DNA from: a virus
Direction: 5' to 3' (one strand)
Virus record (IMG/VR): IMGVR_UViG_3300037478_000343
Coordinates: 4,180-68,179 of that record
DNA: 64,000 nucleotides
A program made the translations under genes and the position numbers. This document shows positions 4,147 to 61,607 of this stretch, one piece after another. Each line of letters opens with the position of its first letter. Within the stretch, counting starts at the first letter, position 1. Under the pieces are notes generated by a model, which saw only the letters and a program-made list of their open reading frames with translations, had not been told where the DNA came from and made no database searches.

Positions 4147-4836
4147 TCAAAACAGGGACGGGATGCCGTCCAGTTCGTTTGCGTACTCTGGTCGTTCATC
4201 ATTGACCAGCATATGATTTATCTGCACCAGTCGTTCGTAGAACCGCGCCTGCATGCCCTCGTCAAGTGGAACGTCCTCCTGGTGTAGCTGCTCCAGCGGC
4301 TTTGCCTCCGGATGGAAGCTGACGAACCTTATCTTTGGCCGGCCAGTGACAAATGCCTCGAACTGAACCTGTACGAAGTACTCCCACATGCACTGCTTCA
4401 CGCCAAATCTAAGCAGGTCTTTGTGCCTATCCAGAATCAGCGGGCACTTCACCTGCCCGGTCGTGTCGTCACCCTCAAAAAAGTCTGGGGTTGCGCTCGC
4501 GATGTCGAATGTGGGGTGAATAAACATGCCGGGGTTGATCTGCACCTTGCCGGTGGTAAACCGCAGCATGTCGTACTCACGGATGGCGCGCTCCTCGTAG
4601 GCGTGGCCATGCTCGAAGGCGGCGCACGTCGCTCCATCGACTGCCGGCTTCGTCAGTTCCTCCGCCATCTCGTCCAACATCCGACCGATCGTGGCGGGGC
4701 GACCGTACATTATCTTGTACGCACGGTCAGAGGCCGTGATGCGACCGCGCCGAGCGTCCATCCAAATCGGCGTGTTCTGCGGAATCCCCTTGGCCGGGTC
4801 CTTCGGCTTGTACAGTAGGCTGAAGTCGTACTTCAT
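4147..4836 (-). CDS. YqaJ-like viral recombinase-type exonuclease
   Basis: PIWMDARRGRITASDRA...AFEHGHAYEERAIREY matches the YqaJ/lambda-exonuclease family signature. Immediately downstream of recT, as in Sak/RecT-YqaJ modules. Start taken at Met-59 of track ORF 4147..5010. Confidence 0.8.
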   Translation of the reverse strand: MKYDFSLLYKPKDPAKGIPQNTPIWMDARRGRITASDRAYKIMYGRPATIGRMLDEMAEELTKPAVDGATCAAFEHGHAYEERAIREYDMLRFTTGKVQINPGMFIHPTFDIASATPDFFEGDDTTGQVKCPLILDRHKDLLRFGVKQCMWEYFVQVQFEAFVTGRPKIRFVSFHPEAKPLEQLHQEDVPLDEGMQARFYERLVQINHMLVNDERPEYANELDGIPSLF

Positions 4837-5986: not shown

Positions 5987-6624
5987 GTCTCTCCCCTGCG
6001 AAAATTAGAGCGGTTGGCCAAGTTTGATATAAAGGGCGACCGCGACTACCCTTACATGTTTCCCCGGTGACCTCCGGAGCCAGCTGATTCAGTGTCTCTA
6101 CGGTCCCCACCGATCTACTGGTGAGCTTTGTTCCGTCTCGGAGACAAGGCGTCTGAAATGTACGCCCAGCTGGAGCATGGTTTGGACGATACCCGCTAGA
6201 ATCAGGTGCGTCTACAACTTGCCGATTTTATTTTCCGGTCGCGGAGTGTACCAGAGTTTGCCCGGTCAACTTCGTTGCCGAAACGGTGGCGGAGCGGTGG
6301 CCGTATGTTTGGGAAATGTGGTTTCATGCTCGCCGCGAACGAGAGGGCGAACTCGATAAAAAGCGCAGGTAGGGGTCGGGAGCGCCTTAGCTTTCGGTCT
6401 GGGGACGCCGAATAGAACCCCAGAGCCGCCGTGCGGCCAGCTTCCTAGAAACCACTTTAACAAAGTGCGTCTAGGGGGTAAGGGGGCCGCTGTGCCGCCA
6501 GGGAGGCGATAACTACTGAATAGTAAGACAACAGACTCAGGTATTAAGTTAAATTGCGCCCGAGTTTCGCGAGTTCTGTAAGGTCGGGCATTTCAGGCAT
6601 TTCAGAAATCGGAGTAAGATTCTT

Positions 6625-6942
6625 ATGTCCACATGTTACGTCTACTTCATCCAGGAAGCTCCGCGCGGCTCAATAAAAGTTGGCATGTCAAGCGATCCAG
6701 AGAAACGTCTGAAGACTTTGCAGACCGGCGCCCACAAAAAATTACGGCTGATCGCTCGGTTCCCATTCCAATGTCGGCAGGAGGCACATACGGTGGAGCA
6801 AGAGATTCACCGTAAATTCTCCCACTTACGACTGTCCCAAGGCGAGTGGTTCAAGCGGACGATCCTGAAAGAGATGAAGCAGGGACGGAAACGTGTAATC
6901 GGTGGGTCCTACGAGAATCCGACAGTAACCACCCCGTCTTGA
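6625..6942 (+). CDS. T5orf172 / GIY-YIG-like domain protein
   Basis: YVYFIQEAPRGSIKVGMSSDPEKRLKTLQTG...EQEIHRKFSHLRLSQGEWF is the characteristic T5orf172 (MUG113-like) pattern. First gene of the rightward operon. Confidence 0.65.
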   Translation: MSTCYVYFIQEAPRGSIKVGMSSDPEKRLKTLQTGAHKKLRLIARFPFQCRQEAHTVEQEIHRKFSHLRLSQGEWFKRTILKEMKQGRKRVIGGSYENPTVTTPS

Positions 6943-6995: not shown

Positions 6996-9509
6996 ATGCA
7001 ACTGTTCGACTACCAGAGCCGTGTTCTCGACGACGTGCGCTACGCCATCCGCGGAGGCGCACGCTCGATCTTAATGGTGCTCCCGACCGGTTCAGGAAAA
7101 ACGGTCTGCGGTGCCCACATGATTCATTCCGCTGAGTCGAAAGGCAACCCGACGCTATTCACCGCGCATCGGCGCGAGCTGGTGAACCAGACCGTCGACA
7201 AGTTGCAACGTTTCGGCGTACAGCATGGGACGATCATGGCCGGCAAGACGCCGTCCCTTTGGCATGGCGTGCAGGTTGCCAGCGTCGATACTTTGCGGGC
7301 TCGCTGCATGAGCCCACGCAAGAAGATGGAATTGCCACGCGCATCTATCCTGATGGTGGACGAAGCGCACCGGTCCTGCAGCCCGACCTACACGAAGCTG
7401 ATCGACCATTACCGTAAGGACTCGCTGGTGATTGGGCTCACGGCTACGCCGATTCGCGGCGACGGCAAGGGCCTTGGCCGCCACTACGACGAGATGGTTG
7501 TCGGACCCACGGTGCAAGAACTGATCGACATGGGGCGCCTGGTACAGCCCAAGTATTTCGTGCCGAGCATTCAGGACCTGACTGGCGTGCCTATCGCGAA
7601 GGGCGACTACGTCGAGAAGCACCTCGGCAACATCATGGGCACGAAAGAGGTGATCGGCGACGTCGTGGAGCATTACGGCAAGCTTGGCGAGGGCCCGGCC
7701 TTGCTGTTTGCGCCAGATGTGAAGTCGTCCATCGGCTACATGGAAGCATTCAATCGTGCTGGCATTTCTGCGGCTCATATTGATGCGTCCACGCCAGCGG
7801 ACGAGCGCGACCGCATCATCGCAGGACTCCTTGGCGGCCGGTTCGATGTTTGCTGCAACGTAATGGTGCTTTGCCTTGACACCGAAACCGAGATTCTCAC
7901 CGACCGAGGATGGACAAACTACCGGGAAATGACCAAGCAGCACAAGGTGGCTAATTGGGAAGGCGGTCGCGTGTGGTTTGAGGGGCCGCAAGATGTGGTC
8001 GTGAGGGACCGAGATCCAAGTGAGCGCATGTTCTCCATAGAGACGCGCAAGAAAAGCATCCGGGTTACCTCAGGGCATAGGATGCTGTACAGAACGAAGC
8101 ACGGAGGACGGTTCCTCAAATGCCCCGTGGACGAACTTGAAGGACGAAGCGTGCAGCTTCCGATTACCGGTCGCATTGATATAGAGCCCGCTGAAGTCAC
8201 ATTGGACGAATGTATGTTCGCGGGGTTCTTTGTTGGCGATGGCTCAAGGTGCCAACTACAGAGAGGAGGTGTCGAGTACGTTGTTTCTCAGAGCTTCGCT
8301 TATCCGAAGATAATTGCATGGTTCGATGCGCTGATTCTCAGGTGCGGTCTGCATTGCGTGCGAAAGGAGAGGGCATACGCAGTCAAATTCGTGCGCTGGA
8401 GCTTCTGCCGCGGAACCGGCGGAAAATCACAGAAACGCAACGGTGGCGTGGCTCGTCTAGAGTGGCTGCTGGACAAATCTTGCTCCTCCATCAGTAGTTT
8501 GAGCGCCTCTCAGTTCGAGGCGTTTATGCATGGTCTCTGGATGGCCGACGGCAACCACGGAGATGGCGCGACTCCAGTCAAGAACAAATATATAACCTCC
8601 TGCAACAAGTACATGCTAGACAACATTCAGGCCGCAGCCACTGTTCGCGGCATGCGGGTGTCGCTGTCTTCTGAGATTCTTCCACGTAAGGCAAACCACC
8701 GGTCGCAATGGACCCTATCGTTCTGCCATAGAGATTACTGCTCCACGAGCTGCTCTGAGTTTAAGGCAGAGAACATCTGGCGCCCAGAGAAGGTCTGGTG
8801 CGTCAAGACCACGTCAAAAAACATCATCACCAGGCGGCAAGGCAAGGTTGTTGTCATGGGCAACACCGAGGGCTTCGACTGTCCACCAGTGCGCACCATC
8901 ATCATGTGCCGACCAACCCGAAACATCGGTTTGTATTTGCAGATCGGCGGTCGGGGCCTGCGCACGTCGGACGGAAAGGACTCCTGCATAGTCATCGACC
9001 ACTCTGGGAGCGTGTACGAGCACGGCCTGCTGGAATGGGACCACGAGTGGAAACTGACCGATGCCGAGGGCTGCGAGTCTCGCGAGGAGCGCCAGAAAAA
9101 GCTGGACGAGAAGAAGCCTATAACCTGCGTCCAGTGCTCCCATGTGTATACCGGCCAGCTTATCTGTCCCAACTGCGGACACATGCCGAAGAAGCACGGA
9201 AAAATTGTCGAGAGTCGCCAGGCCGATCTGGTTGAGTTACGGACCCTGGCGCGCCAGAAAAAGGAGCGCAAAGACAAGCCCCGAGAGTACACGAAGGAGG
9301 AGAAGCAGCTGTTCTTTTCCATGGCGCTCCAGTACGCCGCTGACAGAGGACACAAAGATGGTTCAGTGGCTTGGAAATTCAAAGACCGCTTTGGCCACTT
9401 CCCTCAAGACATGCAGAGGATACCGACAGAGCCTTCACCGGAATTCATGCGGTTCATCCAGCACCTGAATATTAAAGCCGCCTACCGCCGGAAGAAGGAA
9501 GCGGCATGA
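6996..9509 (+). CDS. SF2 DEAH-box DNA helicase with C-terminal zinc ribbon, interrupted by an intein (extein about 506 aa)
   Basis: Walker A LPTGSGKT, motif II MVDEAH, motif III GLTATP, motif V split as VMVL|...|TEGFDCP, C-terminal CVQCS...CPNCGH zinc ribbon. A 331-aa insertion separates the two halves of motif V. Confidence 0.85.
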   Translation: MQLFDYQSRVLDDVRYAIRGGARSILMVLPTGSGKTVCGAHMIHSAESKGNPTLFTAHRRELVNQTVDKLQRFGVQHGTIMAGKTPSLWHGVQVASVDTLRARCMSPRKKMELPRASILMVDEAHRSCSPTYTKLIDHYRKDSLVIGLTATPIRGDGKGLGRHYDEMVVGPTVQELIDMGRLVQPKYFVPSIQDLTGVPIAKGDYVEKHLGNIMGTKEVIGDVVEHYGKLGEGPALLFAPDVKSSIGYMEAFNRAGISAAHIDASTPADERDRIIAGLLGGRFDVCCNVMVLCLDTETEILTDRGWTNYREMTKQHKVANWEGGRVWFEGPQDVVVRDRDPSERMFSIETRKKSIRVTSGHRMLYRTKHGGRFLKCPVDELEGRSVQLPITGRIDIEPAEVTLDECMFAGFFVGDGSRCQLQRGGVEYVVSQSFAYPKIIAWFDALILRCGLHCVRKERAYAVKFVRWSFCRGTGGKSQKRNGGVARLEWLLDKSCSSISSLSASQFEAFMHGLWMADGNHGDGATPVKNKYITSCNKYMLDNIQAAATVRGMRVSLSSEILPRKANHRSQWTLSFCHRDYCSTSCSEFKAENIWRPEKVWCVKTTSKNIITRRQGKVVVMGNTEGFDCPPVRTIIMCRPTRNIGLYLQIGGRGLRTSDGKDSCIVIDHSGSVYEHGLLEWDHEWKLTDAEGCESREERQKKLDEKKPITCVQCSHVYTGQLICPNCGHMPKKHGKIVESRQADLVELRTLARQKKERKDKPREYTKEEKQLFFSMALQYAADRGHKDGSVAWKFKDRFGHFPQDMQRIPTEPSPEFMRFIQHLNIKAAYRRKKEAA
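7872..8864 (+). mobile_element. intein with LAGLIDADG homing-endonuclease domain, inserted in helicase motif V
   Basis: Starts with Cys (CLDTETEILT, block A), TSGH block B, two LAGLIDADG-type motifs (MFAGFFVGDGS and FMHGLWMADGNHGDG), ends ...KVVVMGN followed by Thr+1 (TEGFDCP). Removing it restores a contiguous helicase motif V. Penultimate residue is Gly rather than His. Confidence 0.75.
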
Positions 9510-9913
9510 AGCGTCGCTATCGCATCTCCATCCGGATCAACGGCAAGCGCGTCTACACGAAGCTGTACCGACGCTGGATGGATATGAAGGGCCGCACGAA
9601 AGGCCACTCGACCCGATCACCGCACTTGTACGACGGCCTTGATCTCCACTGGACATCCTTCGCGGAGTTTCGTTCGTGGGCGCTGGTGAACGGGTTCAGC
9701 AAGGGAACGTCGTCTCCTGATAGAAAAGATGCTGATAAGGGCTACGTGCCGGGCAATGTGAAGTTCGTCCCGTGTGTCGAAAACTACTCATCCCGCCGAA
9801 GCTGGCAGCACATGAGCGACTACGCCGTGCGCGGCGATGAGCCGCCCGAGCCCAAGCACGGACCTCATTGTTCGTGCGAATTTTGCGCGGACTATTGGGC
9901 GGCCACGGCATGA
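9506..9913 (+). CDS. HNH-family endonuclease-like protein (phage homing-endonuclease-type)
   Basis: Pattern KLYRRWMDMKGRTKG...YDGLDLHWTSFAEFRSWALVNGF...DRKDADKGYVPGNVKFVPCVENYSSRR resembles the common phage HNH (HNH_3-like) free-standing endonuclease family. ATGA overlap with the helicase stop. Confidence 0.5.
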   Translation: MKRRYRISIRINGKRVYTKLYRRWMDMKGRTKGHSTRSPHLYDGLDLHWTSFAEFRSWALVNGFSKGTSSPDRKDADKGYVPGNVKFVPCVENYSSRRSWQHMSDYAVRGDEPPEPKHGPHCSCEFCADYWAATA

Positions 9914-54623: not shown

Positions 54624-57600
54624 ATGCCCCGTAACATCCGCATGCCGAACGGCGTCGTCATTTCGAACGTACCGGACGGTGTTAGCAAGCAGGAATTTCA
54701 AGACAAGTATATCGCCAATTTCGGGCAGGAGAAATGGCAGGAACTTGTTGCTGCGCCCGTTGCCGAGCAGATGCCGGCCGGCATCGCCGAGCCCGCTCCT
54801 GAGGTAGCACCGCCCCAGCCAACCGGCATGACCGCAGATGAGCAGATGGTCGCCCGTGACACGCTCGCGGTGCAGCCGGCCACCGACCCATCCCTGTCCC
54901 AGTTCGAGGACGATCCCGCCGGAGCCCAGCAAGAGCAGGGCAAACTCCAGCGCCGCCTGATCGATCTTGGTATCCGCAAGCCCGAGGACTACCACCTACC
55001 CGAGGAAGAATACGACAGGATCACGCAGGACCGCCTGCAGGCATCCATGGCGGCCCGGCAGGCCCCTGCTATGGAAGGCGCCCCACCAGTCGAGAGCGGC
55101 GGCGGCTGGGGCGACGAAGTCGAGGACGACCGCCAGAGAGGCTGGTGGAAACTTTTCAAGGAAACATGGAAACAGCTTCCGGCTCAGATCGGTTCCGGTG
55201 CCCGCATGAAGTCTGCCGCCACGGATCGCATGGCGGCCGAGAACACCACCATCGGCGGGCTCTATCTCGAAAGCCTGCAGGAGCAGTACGTCTCAGGAGA
55301 GGTGAGCGAGGGCGCCTCCCGAATGGCTGAGGATGCCGCGTCGAAGCATGGCATGGAGCCAGAGCAATACGCGGAGTACGTGGCCGGCCAGATAGATGCC
55401 GCCACCGCAGAAGAATTCGCGTCCATGGAGGACTACCAAGCGGCCCGCGAGCAGATCGAGGCGGTCAAGCCTCAGTCTGCGACCGAGGGCGGGTGGATTC
55501 CTCACATATCCTCGATGATCATCGAGAACACCCCGCAACTCAGCTACATCATCGCCGGTGTCGCGACCGGCAACCCGGCTCTGACCATGTCCTTGTTTGG
55601 TACCGACGTGTACGCACGCACGTTCGCGCAGGCCCGCTCAGAGGGTCGGGATGTAGGCGGGGCCGCGCAGGATGCGTTTGCGTCGACCGTGATCGAGGCC
55701 GCTACCGAAGGCGTACCAGTTTACAAGATTGCAAAGCTGATGCGTGCTGGCAACAAGGGCAAGGCAATGAAGCTGTTGTCCGGTGTGGGAACCGAGGCAA
55801 CACAGGAGCTTCTCGCAGAAGGCGGTCAGATTTTGTACGACTACGGCGTCCTCGAAAAGGAAATGACGTGGGGCGAGGCGTTCTCACGTATGCGAGACGC
55901 TGGTGTGGTAGGCGGTGTGCTCGGTAGCGTCGTGTCTGCGCCGGCCGCCGTGTTCGGTGACGACAAGATGGCGGACGCCAACACCGCCGTCAACGATGCC
56001 AAGAAGAAGCTCCAGTCCGTAATCGCTCGTGTACAGAACCCGAACGAGGCCATCAGCGCAGCCGAGGTTAACGAAGCGAAGGACGCCTACAAGAGCGCCC
56101 TCACCGGCAAGCGCAAGCTGGTCGAGGAAAGGCTCGAAGCCAAGAAAGAAAAGAAGGCTGCCAAGGAGAAAAAGAGCGAGGTCAAGGCCGTCAAGAAAAT
56201 GGCCCCGGTCGAGCGTACCCGTCACGACAAGCAGAAGAAGCAAGCAGAATCTGACCAGTCCGTAACCGGTGAGGTTACACCCGAAGACGTGCAGTCCGTC
56301 GAGACGCTGGAGAAAATCGGCGGGGGCACGATTACCGCCAAAGACAGCGATGCCCTGAAAGAGGTCATGGATCAAGGGTACGTGAAGGTCGCCAAGAGCG
56401 GAGCGCTTCTTGTTCTGCCGGCCGGGAAGCGTCGCATAAAGGCCGTACGCGACACCATAGAGAGTAATGCGACAGCAAAACCAGAGGTTGTCGAGCCGGT
56501 TGTCGAACCAGTCAAGACAAAGCAGCCAGCCGAGACGCCCAAGGTCGAGGCTACAGTCGACGCTACGCCGAAGGAACAGCCTAAGGTCGAAACGGATACC
56601 CAAATTGGGGACGTAGATACCCAAATTGGGAATGCTTTGCGCGGGAAGCGTATAGACGACGAGTGGACTGCGTTTTCTCCTGAAGCTGGCAGCCTCAATA
56701 TCCCGCGGGACCAGATGCCGCAGATCAAGGCAAAGCACCGCGGCGCGCTCACCAATTTCCTGAAGGCCCGAGGCATCGAAGGTACCGAGGCGGAAGTGCC
56801 GGCGTCGTCTCTGAAGACAACCCAAGTGGAGTTCTCCGAAGCCAAGGTCGACAAAGCGAAATCATTTACCGATAGCAACCGGGCCATCCTGGTGTCCTCC
56901 GATGGCTACGTGCTGGACGGCCATCACCAGTGGCTGGCGCAGGCCGACAAGGGAGAGGGCATTCGGGTCATCAAGCTGGATGCGCCGATGAGCCGCCTGA
57001 TCGAGGAGGCGAAAGCGTTCCCTAGCTCGGAAGCGTCTGTAGTTCCGACCTCTTCTGAGCCCGCTTCCGAGCGACAGGATAAGACCAACGATCGTTTGCG
57101 CGACCTACTGGACAGTGGGATGAGACGCTTCGCGATGGAAACCCAAGGTCAGGCCATTCTCGATGACATGCAGGAGTCCGGCACCTCGCCGGCAAGTGTG
57201 TCAGATACGTTCTGGCGCAAGACCTACTTCTCTCTGAACGCGCAGGCCCAAGCACGGTTTCAGCGGATGATGCGCGGGCTGGGATTTAAGCCAGGCGATG
57301 TCGGTAGCGTTGCAGCGGATGGCACACAACATACCCTCGACGATTGGGTTCAAGTGGGCCAATTTATCGGCGAGGACTTGGGGGAATCCGCCGAGCACCT
57401 AGAAGGCACCGAGCGCGGTTATGTTTCGCTAATGAAATGGGCGAACGATCAGAGCGCTGCTGCAGAGGCGGAGGCTGCTAAGAGGCCACGATTGACCGAG
57501 GGAGATAAAAAGCAGAAGACCAAGGCCACGCTGCCCGAGAAGACACCGACCAAAAAGAAGTCTAAGAAAAAGAAGAAGAAGACCACGAAGAAGAAGGGCG

Positions 57601-60600
57601 CCACTCCGGATGTTCCTCGATCACAGTTCAGCGTACCCCGTGCGAAACAGACGGCCCCAGATAGGCAGGTCGCGGTCGATGAATTCATGGGAGAGTTCCG
57701 CGACGGTACAGAATCCACCCCGCTGAACCCGGACGCCCGAGTACTCGACAAGAAGGCATTTATCGAAGCCCGCCCAACCCAAGGCGTGGTCTACATAGAC
57801 TTCTTGGCGTCTATCGAGCATGGCAAGGGACACGGCAACAAGGCTCTCAAGTACACCATCGACCTAGCAGATAAGCATGGCGTCGAACTGATGCTGACCG
57901 CGACGTCTATCGACACCAAGAATTTCTCTCAGGAGGATCTGGTGGACTGGTACCAGCGCAACGGTTTCCGTGGCACCAAGGTCATGATTCGCAAGCCTCG
58001 GGCCGGTAGCGCTACGTCGAACTTCCGTGAGATTGACTCGGCCAAGGATGGTCTGGGAAGTGTATCTAAGGCGACCATCGACGAGATGATCCAGAAGCAC
58101 TTCGCCCCTTGGTTCGGTCTGACGAACTTCCAGGTGGTGGAATCCGTCAGTGAGCTGCCCGCCATGGCCAGCCAAGAGATCAAACGCTTCGGCCTGAAGG
58201 TTATGGGTTTGTTCGCGGAAAGCGACGTCGACGGCAGCCCAACCATCTACATAGTGTCTGAGAATCAGTGGAGCACGCAATCCGCTATCCAGACCATCCT
58301 GCACGAGACCGTGGGTCACTACGGCCTGCAAGCTCTGCTTGGGCCGAAGGGCTACAAGAAGATGATGCGCACGATCCTGCGAGACTTCCCGTCCGAGGTA
58401 GCCGCGAACTCTGGAGTCAAAACGGACTCACTCGTGTTTGCCGGCGAGGTTGATAGGATGCAGCAAGCCGAGGAATTGGTGGCACGCGTCGCCGAGTCTG
58501 TCGTCAATGGCCACGAGCTGAACAAGAACCGTATGCGGCTGTGGGAGAGGGTGGTCGCAGCGATCAACATGGCTCTGGTGAAGCTGGGTATCAAGAAGAT
58601 GTCCCAAGCCGACCTTGGTTATCTGGTGCAGAAGGCGGCTCACTACGTTCGGACTCACCAGCAGTCCGACATCTCGATGCGCTCGCAGCAGGTCAGGCGC
58701 ATGAAGGACGCCATGCGTGCCATGGAGTTCGCAACCAGCGAGGCGGTTGGCAGTGACTTCAGCGTGCTAGACAAGTCCCGCGACAGTGACCCGGAACTTG
58801 ACCGGTTCCTGTCCAAGATTGGCCACGACCGCGGCTCGAAGCTGAAGCCGTTTCGCGACTGGTGGTCTACCAAGAAGGGTCGCATCAAGCAGATATTTGA
58901 GATCGAGATATTCGACCAGTTCGCCGGCATCAAGCACCTCGAACAAGAACTGGACATCATCGACTCTCAGGAGAGCGCGTACGTGAGCGTGCGCCTCACC
59001 GCCGGTACCGACACCATGATTCGAGCCGCGCTCGAGGACGGTGTGCCGCTCTGGGACAAGGACGGTGTGCCAGCCATCAAGAAGGGCACGCGAGGTCTGA
59101 TTGATATCCTGGCGCCGGTCGGTCAGAACGCCGAGATGCTGAAAATGTTCGAAGCGTTCATCGTTGCCAGACGAGCGAAGCACCTACTGGAGGAAAACCG
59201 AGAGAAGCTTCTGAGCATGGAAGAAATCGCCGCCGTCCGTAACTACGTCCGCAAGAACAAGCTAGAGGCACTGTTCAACCAGACCGCGCAGGAGATGGCT
59301 GAGTACAAGAAGGGCGTGCTGGACTTCGCGCAGGACGCTGGCCTTATCGACAAGGACTCCCGCGCTCTTTGGGAGCGGGCTGACCACGTGCCGTTCTACC
59401 GCGTGCTGGCCGACAAGAACACCGCAGGTCCGTTCGCGCACGCCAAGATGGGGCAGCTCGGGAAGGTCATCCACAGGCTTAAGGGTGGCACTGACGTTCT
59501 GAAGAACCCGCTTGAGTCGATCGTTCAAAACATCGCCATGCTCATAGAAGCGTCCGTCAAGAACAAGGCCATGGCCGATGTAGTGCGGAACTTCGAAGGC
59601 ACCGGCGCCATCACCAAAGCACCGCAGGCTGTCATCTCGTCTGCGCTGATTCCGCTCGGACAGGTGAGAACCATGCTGGATGAGGCCGGCGTGTCGCTGG
59701 ACGCCGTGGGGCAGGACCTCCTGACCGGCATGGCCAAGCTGATGTCGATGCAGCCACCGCAGGGGGACAACGTGTTCTCAGTCCAGGAGAACGGCAAGAA
59801 GCGCTACTACTACGCGCATGACGCCGGCCTGATGCGCGGAATGAGCAACATCAACCCGAACCAGTGGACCTTCCTGATGAAGGCGCTCAGGTTCCCAAAG
59901 AGGGTAATCACGCGCGCCATTACCCTTACCCCGGACTTCATCCTCAAGAACTGGTTCCGGGACATGCTGCACTCGTACGTGCTGGGCAGACACGGGACCG
60001 TGGTGCCGATCTACGACTCGCTCAAGGGTTGGGGCAAGGCCATCGCTCAGGACGAGACCTTCAAGGACATCATGTCCGGTGGGGGTATGTTCGACAGTGG
60101 CTACGTGAACGCGTCCGATCCGCACGCACAGCACATCGCCATTCGTCGCAAGGTGCTGTCTGAGGGCAGGGGAAATATCCTCGACACCCCAGAGAAGCTG
60201 ATGAACTTCTACATGCGTCTCGCGAACGGCGCGGAAAACGCCCACCGAATCATCGTGTACCAGAAGGCCCTGGAAAAGACCGGCAGCCGTAAGGCGGCTC
60301 TGTTCGAGGCCAGAGACATTATGGACTTCGCGGTCCGTGGCGCAAACCCTGCCATTCGCTTCCTGACCGAGACAGTGCCGTTCTGGGGCGCGCGCGTACA
60401 GGGCTTGCAGCGCACCGGGAAAGGATTCACTGAGCACCCGATCCAGACAACCCTGAAGGCCATTCCGATTGTATTTGCAAGCGTTGCGCTGTACGCCATC
60501 AATCGCGATGACGACCGCTACAAGGCATTGTCTGGCTATGAAAAGAGGCTTTACTACCACTTCTTCGACGTGTTTGAGCAAGGCGACACATGGCGCCTGC

Positions 60601-61607
60601 CGAAGCCGTTTGAAATTGGCGCCATGTTTAGCTCCGTGCCGGAAGTGCTCTCTGAGTACATTCTGAGCAAGGAACCAGACCGCGGCAAGCAGATGGGTGA
60701 GAGCATAGGCTGGATCGTGCGCGAGATGCTTAGCCTATCGCCAGACGTGCAGCTTATCCATCCCATGTACGAACTGGACAAGAACTGGAACGACTTCACC
60801 GATTCTCCGATTGTCTCCTACTGGGAGCAGCAGTTGCCGCCAGAGGATAGGTGGTCTCACACCACTTCTCCGTCCGTGAAATGGCTTGCGCAGAAAATGC
60901 CAGAGGGCGCGCCAGAGTGGTTTCGTTCCCCGAAGCAGCTTGAGTATCTACTCAAGGGATACTTCGCGTCCATGATGGACTACGCGCTGGTGGCGAGCGA
61001 CATGCTCTACCACAAGGCAAACCCGGATGAGCCTCAGCCACCCGTGCGCAGGCTGGACGAGACACCGTTCGTCAAAGCTTTCCGCCGCGAGGAAACCAGA
61101 AAATACGACAAGTACATCGGAGAGCTGTACGAGGTTCTTTCGGAGGCCGAGAAGATTCACAACGGCATCCAGCGCAACAGGAAGATGGGCACCGACGAGG
61201 GGCAGGCGAGGGCCAAGAAGCTGCAGGAGGAGAACCTGCCGCTGCTATACGCGCGCGCGGCGATGAAGCCGGCAAGCAAGGCACTCAGCAAAATCAACGA
61301 CGGCATCCAGCGCATCTATCGCCACCCAACCATGACGCCGGAGGAGAAGAAGGAGCGCATCGACGAGCTGTTGGAGAAGCGATCCGAGATTGCGCAGAAG
61401 GTGTATGGCTTCCGTCCTGGCGGCACTGAGAACAAATTCGAGGGAGGCGAGGAGGTAGAATCCATCATGGAACTAATCCAGCGTATCAGCGGAAAACCCA
61501 AGCAAGAGCAGGTTGATGACCTTATAAGCTCCAACCTTCCACACACGGCCATACTGATCCACGACATAAACATCAAACCGGAGAAGCTGCGTCAAGCGGC
61601 CACATAA
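54624..61607 (+). CDS. giant multidomain (polyvalent) internal virion protein, 2327 aa
   Basis: Contains a ParB/sulfiredoxin-like segment (NIPRDQMPQIK...VSSDGYVLDGHHQWLAQ), a GNAT-like segment (VVYIDFLASIEHGKGHGNKALKYTIDLADKHGV...WYQRNGF), an HEXXH zincin motif (QTILHETVGHYGL), plus Lys-rich linkers and long regions without recognisable motifs. Confidence 0.8.
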   Translation: MPRNIRMPNGVVISNVPDGVSKQEFQDKYIANFGQEKWQELVAAPVAEQMPAGIAEPAPEVAPPQPTGMTADEQMVARDTLAVQPATDPSLSQFEDDPAGAQQEQGKLQRRLIDLGIRKPEDYHLPEEEYDRITQDRLQASMAARQAPAMEGAPPVESGGGWGDEVEDDRQRGWWKLFKETWKQLPAQIGSGARMKSAATDRMAAENTTIGGLYLESLQEQYVSGEVSEGASRMAEDAASKHGMEPEQYAEYVAGQIDAATAEEFASMEDYQAAREQIEAVKPQSATEGGWIPHISSMIIENTPQLSYIIAGVATGNPALTMSLFGTDVYARTFAQARSEGRDVGGAAQDAFASTVIEAATEGVPVYKIAKLMRAGNKGKAMKLLSGVGTEATQELLAEGGQILYDYGVLEKEMTWGEAFSRMRDAGVVGGVLGSVVSAPAAVFGDDKMADANTAVNDAKKKLQSVIARVQNPNEAISAAEVNEAKDAYKSALTGKRKLVEERLEAKKEKKAAKEKKSEVKAVKKMAPVERTRHDKQKKQAESDQSVTGEVTPEDVQSVETLEKIGGGTITAKDSDALKEVMDQGYVKVAKSGALLVLPAGKRRIKAVRDTIESNATAKPEVVEPVVEPVKTKQPAETPKVEATVDATPKEQPKVETDTQIGDVDTQIGNALRGKRIDDEWTAFSPEAGSLNIPRDQMPQIKAKHRGALTNFLKARGIEGTEAEVPASSLKTTQVEFSEAKVDKAKSFTDSNRAILVSSDGYVLDGHHQWLAQADKGEGIRVIKLDAPMSRLIEEAKAFPSSEASVVPTSSEPASERQDKTNDRLRDLLDSGMRRFAMETQGQAILDDMQESGTSPASVSDTFWRKTYFSLNAQAQARFQRMMRGLGFKPGDVGSVAADGTQHTLDDWVQVGQFIGEDLGESAEHLEGTERGYVSLMKWANDQSAAAEAEAAKRPRLTEGDKKQKTKATLPEKTPTKKKSKKKKKKTTKKKGATPDVPRSQFSVPRAKQTAPDRQVAVDEFMGEFRDGTESTPLNPDARVLDKKAFIEARPTQGVVYIDFLASIEHGKGHGNKALKYTIDLADKHGVELMLTATSIDTKNFSQEDLVDWYQRNGFRGTKVMIRKPRAGSATSNFREIDSAKDGLGSVSKATIDEMIQKHFAPWFGLTNFQVVESVSELPAMASQEIKRFGLKVMGLFAESDVDGSPTIYIVSENQWSTQSAIQTILHETVGHYGLQALLGPKGYKKMMRTILRDFPSEVAANSGVKTDSLVFAGEVDRMQQAEELVARVAESVVNGHELNKNRMRLWERVVAAINMALVKLGIKKMSQADLGYLVQKAAHYVRTHQQSDISMRSQQVRRMKDAMRAMEFATSEAVGSDFSVLDKSRDSDPELDRFLSKIGHDRGSKLKPFRDWWSTKKGRIKQIFEIEIFDQFAGIKHLEQELDIIDSQESAYVSVRLTAGTDTMIRAALEDGVPLWDKDGVPAIKKGTRGLIDILAPVGQNAEMLKMFEAFIVARRAKHLLEENREKLLSMEEIAAVRNYVRKNKLEALFNQTAQEMAEYKKGVLDFAQDAGLIDKDSRALWERADHVPFYRVLADKNTAGPFAHAKMGQLGKVIHRLKGGTDVLKNPLESIVQNIAMLIEASVKNKAMADVVRNFEGTGAITKAPQAVISSALIPLGQVRTMLDEAGVSLDAVGQDLLTGMAKLMSMQPPQGDNVFSVQENGKKRYYYAHDAGLMRGMSNINPNQWTFLMKALRFPKRVITRAITLTPDFILKNWFRDMLHSYVLGRHGTVVPIYDSLKGWGKAIAQDETFKDIMSGGGMFDSGYVNASDPHAQHIAIRRKVLSEGRGNILDTPEKLMNFYMRLANGAENAHRIIVYQKALEKTGSRKAALFEARDIMDFAVRGANPAIRFLTETVPFWGARVQGLQRTGKGFTEHPIQTTLKAIPIVFASVALYAINRDDDRYKALSGYEKRLYYHFFDVFEQGDTWRLPKPFEIGAMFSSVPEVLSEYILSKEPDRGKQMGESIGWIVREMLSLSPDVQLIHPMYELDKNWNDFTDSPIVSYWEQQLPPEDRWSHTTSPSVKWLAQKMPEGAPEWFRSPKQLEYLLKGYFASMMDYALVASDMLYHKANPDEPQPPVRRLDETPFVKAFRREETRKYDKYIGELYEVLSEAEKIHNGIQRNRKMGTDEGQARAKKLQEENLPLLYARAAMKPASKALSKINDGIQRIYRHPTMTPEEKKERIDELLEKRSEIAQKVYGFRPGGTENKFEGGEEVESIMELIQRISGKPKQEQVDDLISSNLPHTAILIHDINIKPEKLRQAAT

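Follow-up and report, generated by a model that had tools for sequence, protein, structure and literature searches.

A helicase gene on a tailed-phage genome is interrupted, in the middle of motif V, by 331 residues that its nearest homologues do without. What is this insert, could it leave the helicase by protein splicing and is it still equipped to move? The gene, which encodes a superfamily 2 (SF2) helicase, occupies positions 6996–9509 of a 64 000-nucleotide stretch of viral DNA (positions 4180–68 179 of IMG/VR record IMGVR_UViG_3300037478_000343), the whole of which is referred to below as the window. A first reading of the sequence alone had proposed a LAGLIDADG-type intein at this site, and it is supported by an allele of 506 residues in related phages, by a structural match to known inteins and by the presence of the same module in unrelated host proteins. 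The insert is very probably a true intein that harbours a LAGLIDADG endonuclease, and it is highly likely to be a bifunctional intein of the class 1 type, in which a HINT domain (blocks A and B, then F and G) encloses a two-motif LAGLIDADG domain between Leu292 and Thr624 in motif V. The initial interpretation is therefore supported, apart from its description of the host gene as replicative and essential.

The insertion and its empty site

The precursor is a single open reading frame (ORF), divided as follows (a slash marks an insertion junction here and below).

6996–9509, plus strand: precursor ORF, SF2 helicase with intein; single open frame of 837 residues plus stop
6996–7871, plus strand: N-extein, residues 1–292, ending ...NVMVL in motif V; motif I PTGSGKT, motif II DEAH, first half of Helicase_C
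7872–8864, plus strand: intein, 331 residues, 37.7 kDa, precursor residues 293–623, CLDTETEILT...KVVVMGN; absent from homologues, with a clean indel and a recognizable fold
8865–9509, plus strand: C-extein, residues 624–837 plus stop; TEGFDCP (rest of motif V), motif VI QIGGRGLR, CxxC...CxxC zinc ribbon, C-terminal tail

On the precursor, Pfam recognizes ResIII (residues 1–154), DEAD and Helicase_C, and the DNA helicase family phrog_16 of PHROGs matches as two stretches (E = 2.6e-89). The Walker A motif PTGSGKT and the sequence VDEAH are both readable, and the zinc-ribbon matches in the C-extein (residues 709–729; Pfam) are weak. Helicase_C is split into two pieces on the precursor (27.8 bits), its best stretch being residues 231–289, or profile positions 14–72 of 110. 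On the extein spliced in silico, ResIII scores 86.6 bits and Helicase_C gives one contiguous match (residues 231–326, profile positions 14–109 of 110, 46.3 bits). The insert thus lies inside motif V (...NVMVL/TEGFDCP...), and its removal joins CCNVMVL to TEGFDCP, as had been claimed. The joined exteins would form a helicase of 506 residues and 56.7 kDa; with the 37.7 kDa of the intein, this agrees with the sizes of about 56 and 37 kDa given by the sequence-only reading.

The in silico spliced extein (506 residues) was used as the query in a search for homologues. One of them (P0008) is exactly of the predicted spliced length, 506 residues, and is 90% identical over 100% of the spliced extein; the 118 further homologues listed are 470–606 residues long, too short for any of them to hold the 331-residue insert. 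In an alignment of six protein sequences, the gap in the five homologues (55–90% identical) is exactly residues 293–623, the flanks N-x-M-V-L and TEGFDCP are invariant and the N-extein is ungapped across the junction. P0008 is encoded on two contigs (L002 and L003) that are syntenic with the window (RecT–YqaJ–SSB, helicase, a 136-residue ORF and primase). The DNA alignment with these contigs contains a single clean indel of 993 nt at 7871/2–8863/4, with near-identical sequence on both sides, and the empty site in the related phage reads AACGTAATGGTCCTG/ACCGAGGGCTTCGACTGCCC. The insert boundaries first proposed (residues 293–623, nucleotides 7872–8864) are confirmed to the base by the alignment gap and the indel, and the suggested comparison with intein-less alleles of related phages has been made with a 90%-identical allele in a syntenic context. 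A normal insertion domain of this helicase family, named at the outset as what could overturn the intein interpretation, is contradicted by nearest homologues that are without the insert.

The two intein-minus contigs (L002, JGI 3300037755; L003, SRR12681864) and the intein-plus window (SRR12683089) come from sequencing runs numbered close together, and the two alleles possibly come from one study or population. L002 carries a phage integrase, which suggests that its phage is temperate. The window helicase protein is itself present on a 66.5 kb metagenomic contig (Logan SRR12683089) and on a 74.7 kb JGI contig.

Motifs, fold and lineage of the insert

The Cys1, the TxxH block, the two LAGLIDADG motifs and the C-terminal Asn followed by Thr described in the sequence-only reading are all present. 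They belong to the following features, in which residues are numbered from the first residue of the intein.

7872–7913, plus strand: splicing block A, C1-L-D-T-E-T-E-I-L-T-D-R-G-W; Cys1 is the predicted first nucleophile
8061–8084, plus strand: splicing block B, R64-V-T66-S-G-H69-R70-M71; TxxH, then Arg at B:11 and Met at B:12
8193–8741, plus strand: nested LAGLIDADG homing-endonuclease domain, residues ~108–290, placed by Foldseek matches to I-DmoI and to the endonuclease domains of PI-SceI, PI-PfuI and TliVMA and by a profile match to I-DmoI
8217–8243, plus strand: LAGLIDADG motif 1, FAGFFVGD123G, at the end of model helix 111–123
8526–8552, plus strand: LAGLIDADG motif 2, MHGLWMAD226G, at the end of model helix 212–225
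8790–8837, plus strand: splicing block F, K-V-W309-C310-V-K-T-T-S-K-N-I-I-T-R321-R322; Cys at F:4, no His
8844–8867, plus strand: splicing block G and +1 residue, K-V-V-V-M329-G330-N331/T+1; Gly-Asn end, Thr at +1

The last histidine of the intein is residue 286, so that the histidine of block F and the penultimate histidine of block G are both missing.

An AlphaFold model of the insert, built on seven sequences, has a mean predicted local distance difference test score (pLDDT) of 85.6 and a predicted template modelling score (pTM) of 0.85. In this model the insert has the HINT fold and its core the two-motif LAGLIDADG fold: β-rich N- and C-terminal parts (residues 1–~104 and ~295–331) enclose an α/β core, and helices 111–123 and 212–225 each finish at a LAGLIDADG aspartate. 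The best Foldseek matches in the PDB are the TliVMA intein (E = 6e-14), PI-SceI (1e-11), PI-PfuI (4e-11) and PhoVMA (7e-11), followed by the free-standing LAGLIDADG enzyme I-DmoI (E of about 7e-7, target-normalized template modelling score, TM, of 0.55–0.61); the HINT domain of AceL NrdHF is matched with a root-mean-square deviation of 2.0 Å over 101 columns. At the sequence level, solved inteins are reached by profiles only and not by single-sequence searches of the PDB, where phmmer returned nothing meaningful for the intein or for a hand-made mini-intein. The splicing-domain-only profile A3 finds AceL NrdHF (1.7e-8), Spl DnaX (8e-5) and PI-MtuI (9e-4), profile A1 finds AceL NrdHF (E = 3.9e-7) and a profile match to I-DmoI has an E-value of 0.004. 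For the insert, Pfam yielded neither an intein nor a Hint model, and PHROGs no family. Chance is excluded by the homology itself: the E-values are 2e-42 to relatives of the insert, and, to a solved intein, 6e-14 in Foldseek and 1.7e-8 by profile.

How far has the module spread? A word-indexed protein search yielded six relatives of the insert only, a number that measures the sensitivity limit of the search and not rarity, because an exhaustive search with a hidden Markov model (HMM) found far more. The profile for the latter included about 150 positions of the helicase N-extein, and its 1703 hits at E <= 1e-30 mix helicase-only and intein hits. The family is defined here as the copies re-detected at full length by an intein-only HMM in the top hits, which amount to 158 copies in at least 151 representative proteins (50% clustering). 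Of the six initial relatives, three are truncated helicases in which the insert occupies the same site and two are T4 gp19-like tail-tube proteins (...LLWD/CLDEDTEILT...IIGN/CIPTRYK). The sixth (P0006) is a protein of 491 residues with no Pfam hit, split at ...QCHGH/CLDSETEILT...VVGN/SHGRR, a host motif that we read as a putative metallophosphoesterase-type histidine motif. The tail-tube and phosphoesterase-like hosts sit in phage-like contigs. Across the family, insertion is mostly in helicase motif V (xVL/TEGFD) and also in motif VI (LYxQM/CGRGxRP), in motif II (YILDE/CHK) and in other proteins. Judged from these sequences, the recurrence of one module at conserved sites of unrelated proteins (tail-tube, phosphoesterase-like, and helicase motifs II, V and VI) is what would be expected of an intein.

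Five single SF2 helicases of 1300–1960 residues (P0127, P0128, P0129, P0130 and P0135) each carry two inteins of the lineage, in motifs II, V or VI. The phage with the phosphoesterase-like host (L005 137–3310, L006 152–3325) encodes a DNA polymerase A of 1057 residues with a faint LAGLIDADG_3 hit, which is probably another intein.

Three residues are found in 158 of the 158 family copies: Cys1, the penultimate Gly and the Cys at F:4 (Cys310). The junctions read GN/T in 95 copies, GN/C in 50, GN/S in 11 and GQ/C in two. The other splicing positions are nearly as constant (T66 96%, H69 100%, W309 98%, R321 99%, R322 97%, N331 99%), and so are those of the endonuclease: position 123 is Asp in 154 and Glu in three of 157 copies (G124 99%), and position 226 is Asp in 146 and Asn in 11 of 157 (G227 100%). 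Position B:11 is Arg in 95 of 157 copies (61%), B:12 is Met in 122 of 157 and never Trp, and G:5 is Met in 73 and Thr in 55 (35%), with Met in the window copy. The penultimate Gly had been singled out as a departure from the usual His; it is indeed there, but it is not peculiar to the window copy, being invariant in the lineage and known in other phage inteins (PMC5050341; PMC7891396). This invariance makes it a trait of the lineage and not a sign of decay. The window copy retains every catalytic position (C1, T66, H69, D123, G124, D226, G227, W309, C310, R321, R322, G330 and N331), and by its sequence it should be able to splice and probably to cleave DNA.

The inteins nearest to the window copy (48–51% identical) sit in helicases that are just 31–38% identical to the window helicase, whereas the nearest helicases (90, 70 and 57% identical) carry no intein. 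Such a patchy occurrence, which does not follow the host gene, is what a homing element would be expected to show. A search of 50,697 deposited phage records found a full-length relative only in the Salinibacter phages M8CC-19 and M31CC-1, and blastn of the gene against the same records gave just a 97 nt match at intein block A, to Salinibacter phages. No relatives were confirmed when IMG/VR was scanned for intein patterns or GTDB genomes for the helicase without its intein, and hmmsearch of all window ORFs of at least 80 residues found no second family copy.

Proposed splicing route and competing explanations

In the route that we propose, a 94 kDa precursor would be made with its second RecA-like domain disrupted. 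Cys293 (Cys1 of the intein) would undergo an N–S acyl shift, aided by Thr66 and His69 of block B, and attack by Thr624 (+1) would give a branched oxoester. Cyclization of Asn623 would free the 37.7 kDa intein, and an O–N shift would yield the 56.7 kDa helicase with motif V (...NVMVL-TEGFDCP...) restored. The missing histidines have precedents. In class 1 inteins of phages, Gly, Lys or Ser often stands in for the penultimate His, and the Bethlehem gp51 intein, with a penultimate Gly, splices completely, while its Gly-to-His mutant is slower (PMC5050341). The AceL NrdHF intein (S65-x-x-H68-R69-M70, Cys124 at F:4, T144-G145-N146) lacks both histidines; its Arg69 hydrogen-bonds to the carbonyl of the C-terminal scissile bond, mutation of Arg69 slows splicing and the G145H mutation abolishes activity by a clash with Arg69 (PMC7891396). 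By homology, Arg70 (B:11) of the window intein probably polarizes the C-terminal scissile bond and helps Asn331 to cyclize, with Gly330 leaving room, and Cys310 (F:4) probably fills the coordinating role held by Asp in most class 1 inteins. Once free, the intein would act as a site-specific endonuclease that cuts empty helicase alleles (AACGTAATGGTCCTG/ACCGAGGGCTTCGACTGCCC) during co-infection and is copied into them by repair.

By published sequence signatures (PMC5222942; PMC7891396), the intein is assigned to class 1 with Cys at F:4, because Cys1 is invariant, Trp is never found at B:12 and Thr is at G:5 in only 35% of the family. It shares with class 1 its absence from orthologues, Cys1, TxxH and Asn followed by Thr at +1, although it has no penultimate His, a residue that is frequent in the class without being required; with class 3 it shares Cys at F:4, but neither a nucleophile-free N-terminus nor Trp at B:12 with Thr at G:5. 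A plain class 3 intein was rejected in view of the invariant Cys1 and the absence of Trp at B:12.

Several observations weigh against the proposal of a functional, homing intein. In the intein HMM check suggested by the sequence-only reading, TIGR01445 (intein_Nterm) matches residues 1–72 of the intein (E = 1.5e-4), but its 22.7 bits fall under the cut-off of 24.5, and the other curated models are likewise just below threshold (Hom_end, 18.2 against 21.1 bits; LAGLIDADG_3, 15.8 against 22.5 bits). Of the 67 positions at which the family is at least 80% conserved, five differ in the window copy, all conservatively (V86, V109, A117, F120 and L199). It is also a short variant, of 331 residues compared with a family median of 387, and is without a segment of about 55 residues (e.g. 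...RRISANSYNLRKxG...) between the N-lobe of HINT and LAGLIDADG motif 1. Most relatives have this segment, including P0001–P0003 and most of P0127–P0273, and it may be a DNA-recognition module. The presence of Arg at B:11 in only 61% of the family means that compensation of the missing His by Arg is not universal. In the DNA alignment, identity is not raised beside the insertion site, and there is thus no hint of a co-conversion tract. Composition bears no signature of recent arrival either. The lower guanine and cytosine (GC) content noted at the outset is real (54.2% in the insert, 59.9% in the N-extein and 56.7% in the C-extein), as is the lower GC at third codon positions (GC3; 0.644 versus 0.75 and 0.73 in the exteins). 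The difference is statistically weak, however: the insert is at the 11th percentile of 993 nt windows (window mean 57.0%, standard deviation 2.4), and its GC3 is the seventh lowest of 33 in-frame chunks from other long ORFs. A recently acquired island of foreign composition was discarded, as neither GC nor GC3 is an outlier.

Could splicing depend on Cys310 rather than on Cys1 alone? The cysteine at F:4 would then drive or aid the reaction through a branched thioester of the class 3 type, either instead of Cys1 or relayed from it, and the lineage would stand between class 1 and the unusual 'MCT' inteins of class 3, of which AceL NrdHF is one. Cys at F:4 is as invariant as Cys1, Thr stands at G:5 in 35% of the family, Thr and Ser predominate at +1, as they do in class 3 (PMC5222942), and the closest solved relative by profile is a proven class 3 intein (Ala1, Cys at F:4 as first nucleophile) that, like the window intein, has Met at B:12, Arg at B:11, a Gly-Asn end and neither of the two histidines (PMC7891396). 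Yet the invariance of Cys1 itself argues for a working nucleophile, class 3 inteins are recognized precisely by a missing N-terminal nucleophile (PMC5222942; PMC7891396), Trp is never seen at B:12 and the window copy has Met, not Thr, at G:5. Among inteins in general, moreover, Cys ranks second in frequency at F:4, a ranking that is not split by class (PMC4031507). We find this route improbable, and we give similarly little credence to the wider proposal that the lineage is an endonuclease-bearing, mobile sister or ancestor of the 'MCT' class 3 inteins with a possible hybrid Cys1/Cys F:4 route. If it were true, the N-extein could be passed from Cys1 to Cys F:4, or either cysteine could start the reaction, and the lineage would then be an extant link between class 1 and class 3 splicing. 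The Cys1–Cys310 pair might also serve as a redox switch on helicase maturation.

Another explanation keeps splicing and gives up mobility: the endonuclease would be inactive, or its target lost, and the element would be fixed, immobile and kept only because the helicase depends on its precise excision. Endonucleases normally decay at some stage of the homing cycle, and such decay would fit the loss of the ~55-residue segment ahead of LAGLIDADG motif 1, the lack of any compositional sign of recent arrival and the Asn that replaces the second catalytic Asp in the relatives P0004 and P0005. In the window copy, however, both catalytic aspartates and both motifs are intact and confidence in the model of the endonuclease domain is high; a near-identical empty site in a phage with a 90%-identical helicase, from neighbouring accessions, is also the very situation in which homing operates. 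We therefore regard an inactive endonuclease as unlikely, although with more to be said for it than for a route through Cys310. Very improbable, finally, is an insert that does not splice at all, whether an insertion domain or a dead intein, retained in a helicase that is inactive or tolerates it. The sub-threshold scores of the curated intein HMMs would agree with such an insert, but it would interrupt motif V, part of the second RecA-like domain, the splicing residues are all conserved, the nearest homologues are entirely without it, and the occurrence of the same module at catalytic motifs of unrelated proteins would make no sense for a helicase accessory domain.

Genomic setting and comparison with known systems

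The window belongs to a tailed phage, with genes for the large and small terminase, the portal, a virion structural protein and a Mu gpT-like head protein. Its early module comprises RecT, YqaJ and SSB on the minus strand and, in order on the plus strand, a T5orf172 gene, the helicase, a 135-residue HNH-like ORF and a Zn-ribbon/Toprim primase. The helicase is a RadD-like SF2 enzyme but not RadD, since it scores 107 bits with the RadD equivalog NF053632, whose cut-off is 720. No second helicase and no DNA polymerase were recognized among the window ORFs scanned. A role in replication is plausible, because this is the only helicase recognized, a primase is adjacent and no DNA polymerase was recognized in the scanned ORFs.

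Directly upstream of the helicase, the T5orf172/MUG113 (GIY-YIG-like) gene (6625–6942, plus strand) encodes 105 residues and has a GC content of 52%. It is missing from the syntenic intein-less contigs L002 and L003 (indel 6594–6941) and thus constitutes, next to the gene with the intein, a further indel that involves a homing-endonuclease-like gene. Downstream, the 135-residue ORF (9506–9913, plus strand), which overlaps the stop codon of the helicase gene, has hits to HNH endonuclease families in PHROGs (E = 1.6e-10); in contrast to the T5orf172 gene, it has a counterpart of matching size and position, of 136 residues, in the intein-less relatives. The structural region contains a very long ORF of 2327 residues (54624–61607, plus strand).

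Inteins in DNA-metabolism proteins of phages and bacteria are well documented, including in the SF2 helicases HepA/SNF2, Ski2, RecG and UvrD (PMC4760082; PMC5050341), and the window intein is in itself an ordinary kind of selfish element. Its lineage is widespread and poorly annotated: at least 151 representative proteins (50% clustering) are missed by current curated HMMs, and public records of the hosts, those of the cultured Salinibacter phages included, say just 'superfamily II helicase'. For the splicing mechanism, the lineage presents a Gly-Asn end without the catalytic histidines as a stable, selected solution, and it ties endonuclease-bearing Cys1 inteins to AceL NrdHF, which bears on the origin of class 3 splicing. 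For homing dynamics, it offers a natural intein-plus/intein-minus pair, with a 90%-identical helicase and near-identical target sites, for testing homing in phages.

Five groups of known systems can be set beside the window intein. The overall architecture is that of PI-SceI (PDB entry 1vde), PI-PfuI (PDB entry 1dq3) and TliVMA/PhoVMA (PDB entries 7qsu, 7qss and 7qst), in which a HINT domain likewise holds a nested two-motif LAGLIDADG domain. The Foldseek matches to them (E from 6e-14 to 1e-10, query-normalized TM 0.55–0.66) come with an identity of 10–14% only, and the matched chains are larger (361–454 residues) than the 331-residue window intein. These four inteins have the canonical penultimate His.

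The Salinibacter phages M8CC-19 and M31CC-1 (AUO78955.1) are the only cultured phages, among the records searched, with a full-length member of the lineage, inserted at the same motif V site (NYGVL/CLDADTEILT...TVTVTGN/TEGYNDP). Their intein is 34% identical over the full window intein (E = 2e-60), but it is 390 residues long, with the extra segment of about 55 residues, and its host helicase is divergent. In M8CC-19 the gene (L007 1613–4615) encodes 1000 residues and is annotated as 'superfamily II helicase' only, the intein at residues 297–686 being unmarked.

The intein of Bethlehem gp51, a mycobacteriophage recombination directionality factor of the metallophosphoesterase type (Kelley et al., 2016; PMC5050341), shares with the window intein a phage origin, class 1 features, Cys1 and Gly in the penultimate position, and its insertion site is likewise a conserved motif in a protein of DNA metabolism. 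P0006, for its part, is split in a putative His-rich motif of the phosphoesterase type (...HGH/.../SHG...). The host gene and the host phylum differ from those of the window. The class 3 inteins MP-Be DnaB, Dra Snf2 and Msm DnaBi1 share the Cys at F:4, a +1 residue that is usually Thr or Ser and an association with phage and helicase genes (PMC4031507; PMC5222942), but they have no N-terminal nucleophile, Trp at B:12 and Thr at G:5, where the window intein has Cys1, Met and Met, respectively.

The closest solved relative by sequence profile is the AceL NrdHF split intein (PDB entry 6zgq; Hoffmann et al., 2020; PMC7891396). Both inteins are phage-derived and metagenomic, and both combine (S/T)-x-x-H-R-M, in which SPNHRM of AceL NrdHF aligns with block B of the window intein, with Cys at F:4, a Gly-Asn end and no His at F:13 or G:6. 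They differ at G:5 (Thr in AceL NrdHF, Met in the window intein) and in the host gene, which is a ribonucleotide reductase for the former and a helicase for the latter. AceL NrdHF is naturally split, with a free-standing GIY-YIG gene between its halves and no nested endonuclease, whereas the window intein is contiguous and carries LAGLIDADG; and AceL NrdHF, with Ala1, follows the class 3 route, whereas the window intein has the Cys1 that is invariant in its lineage.

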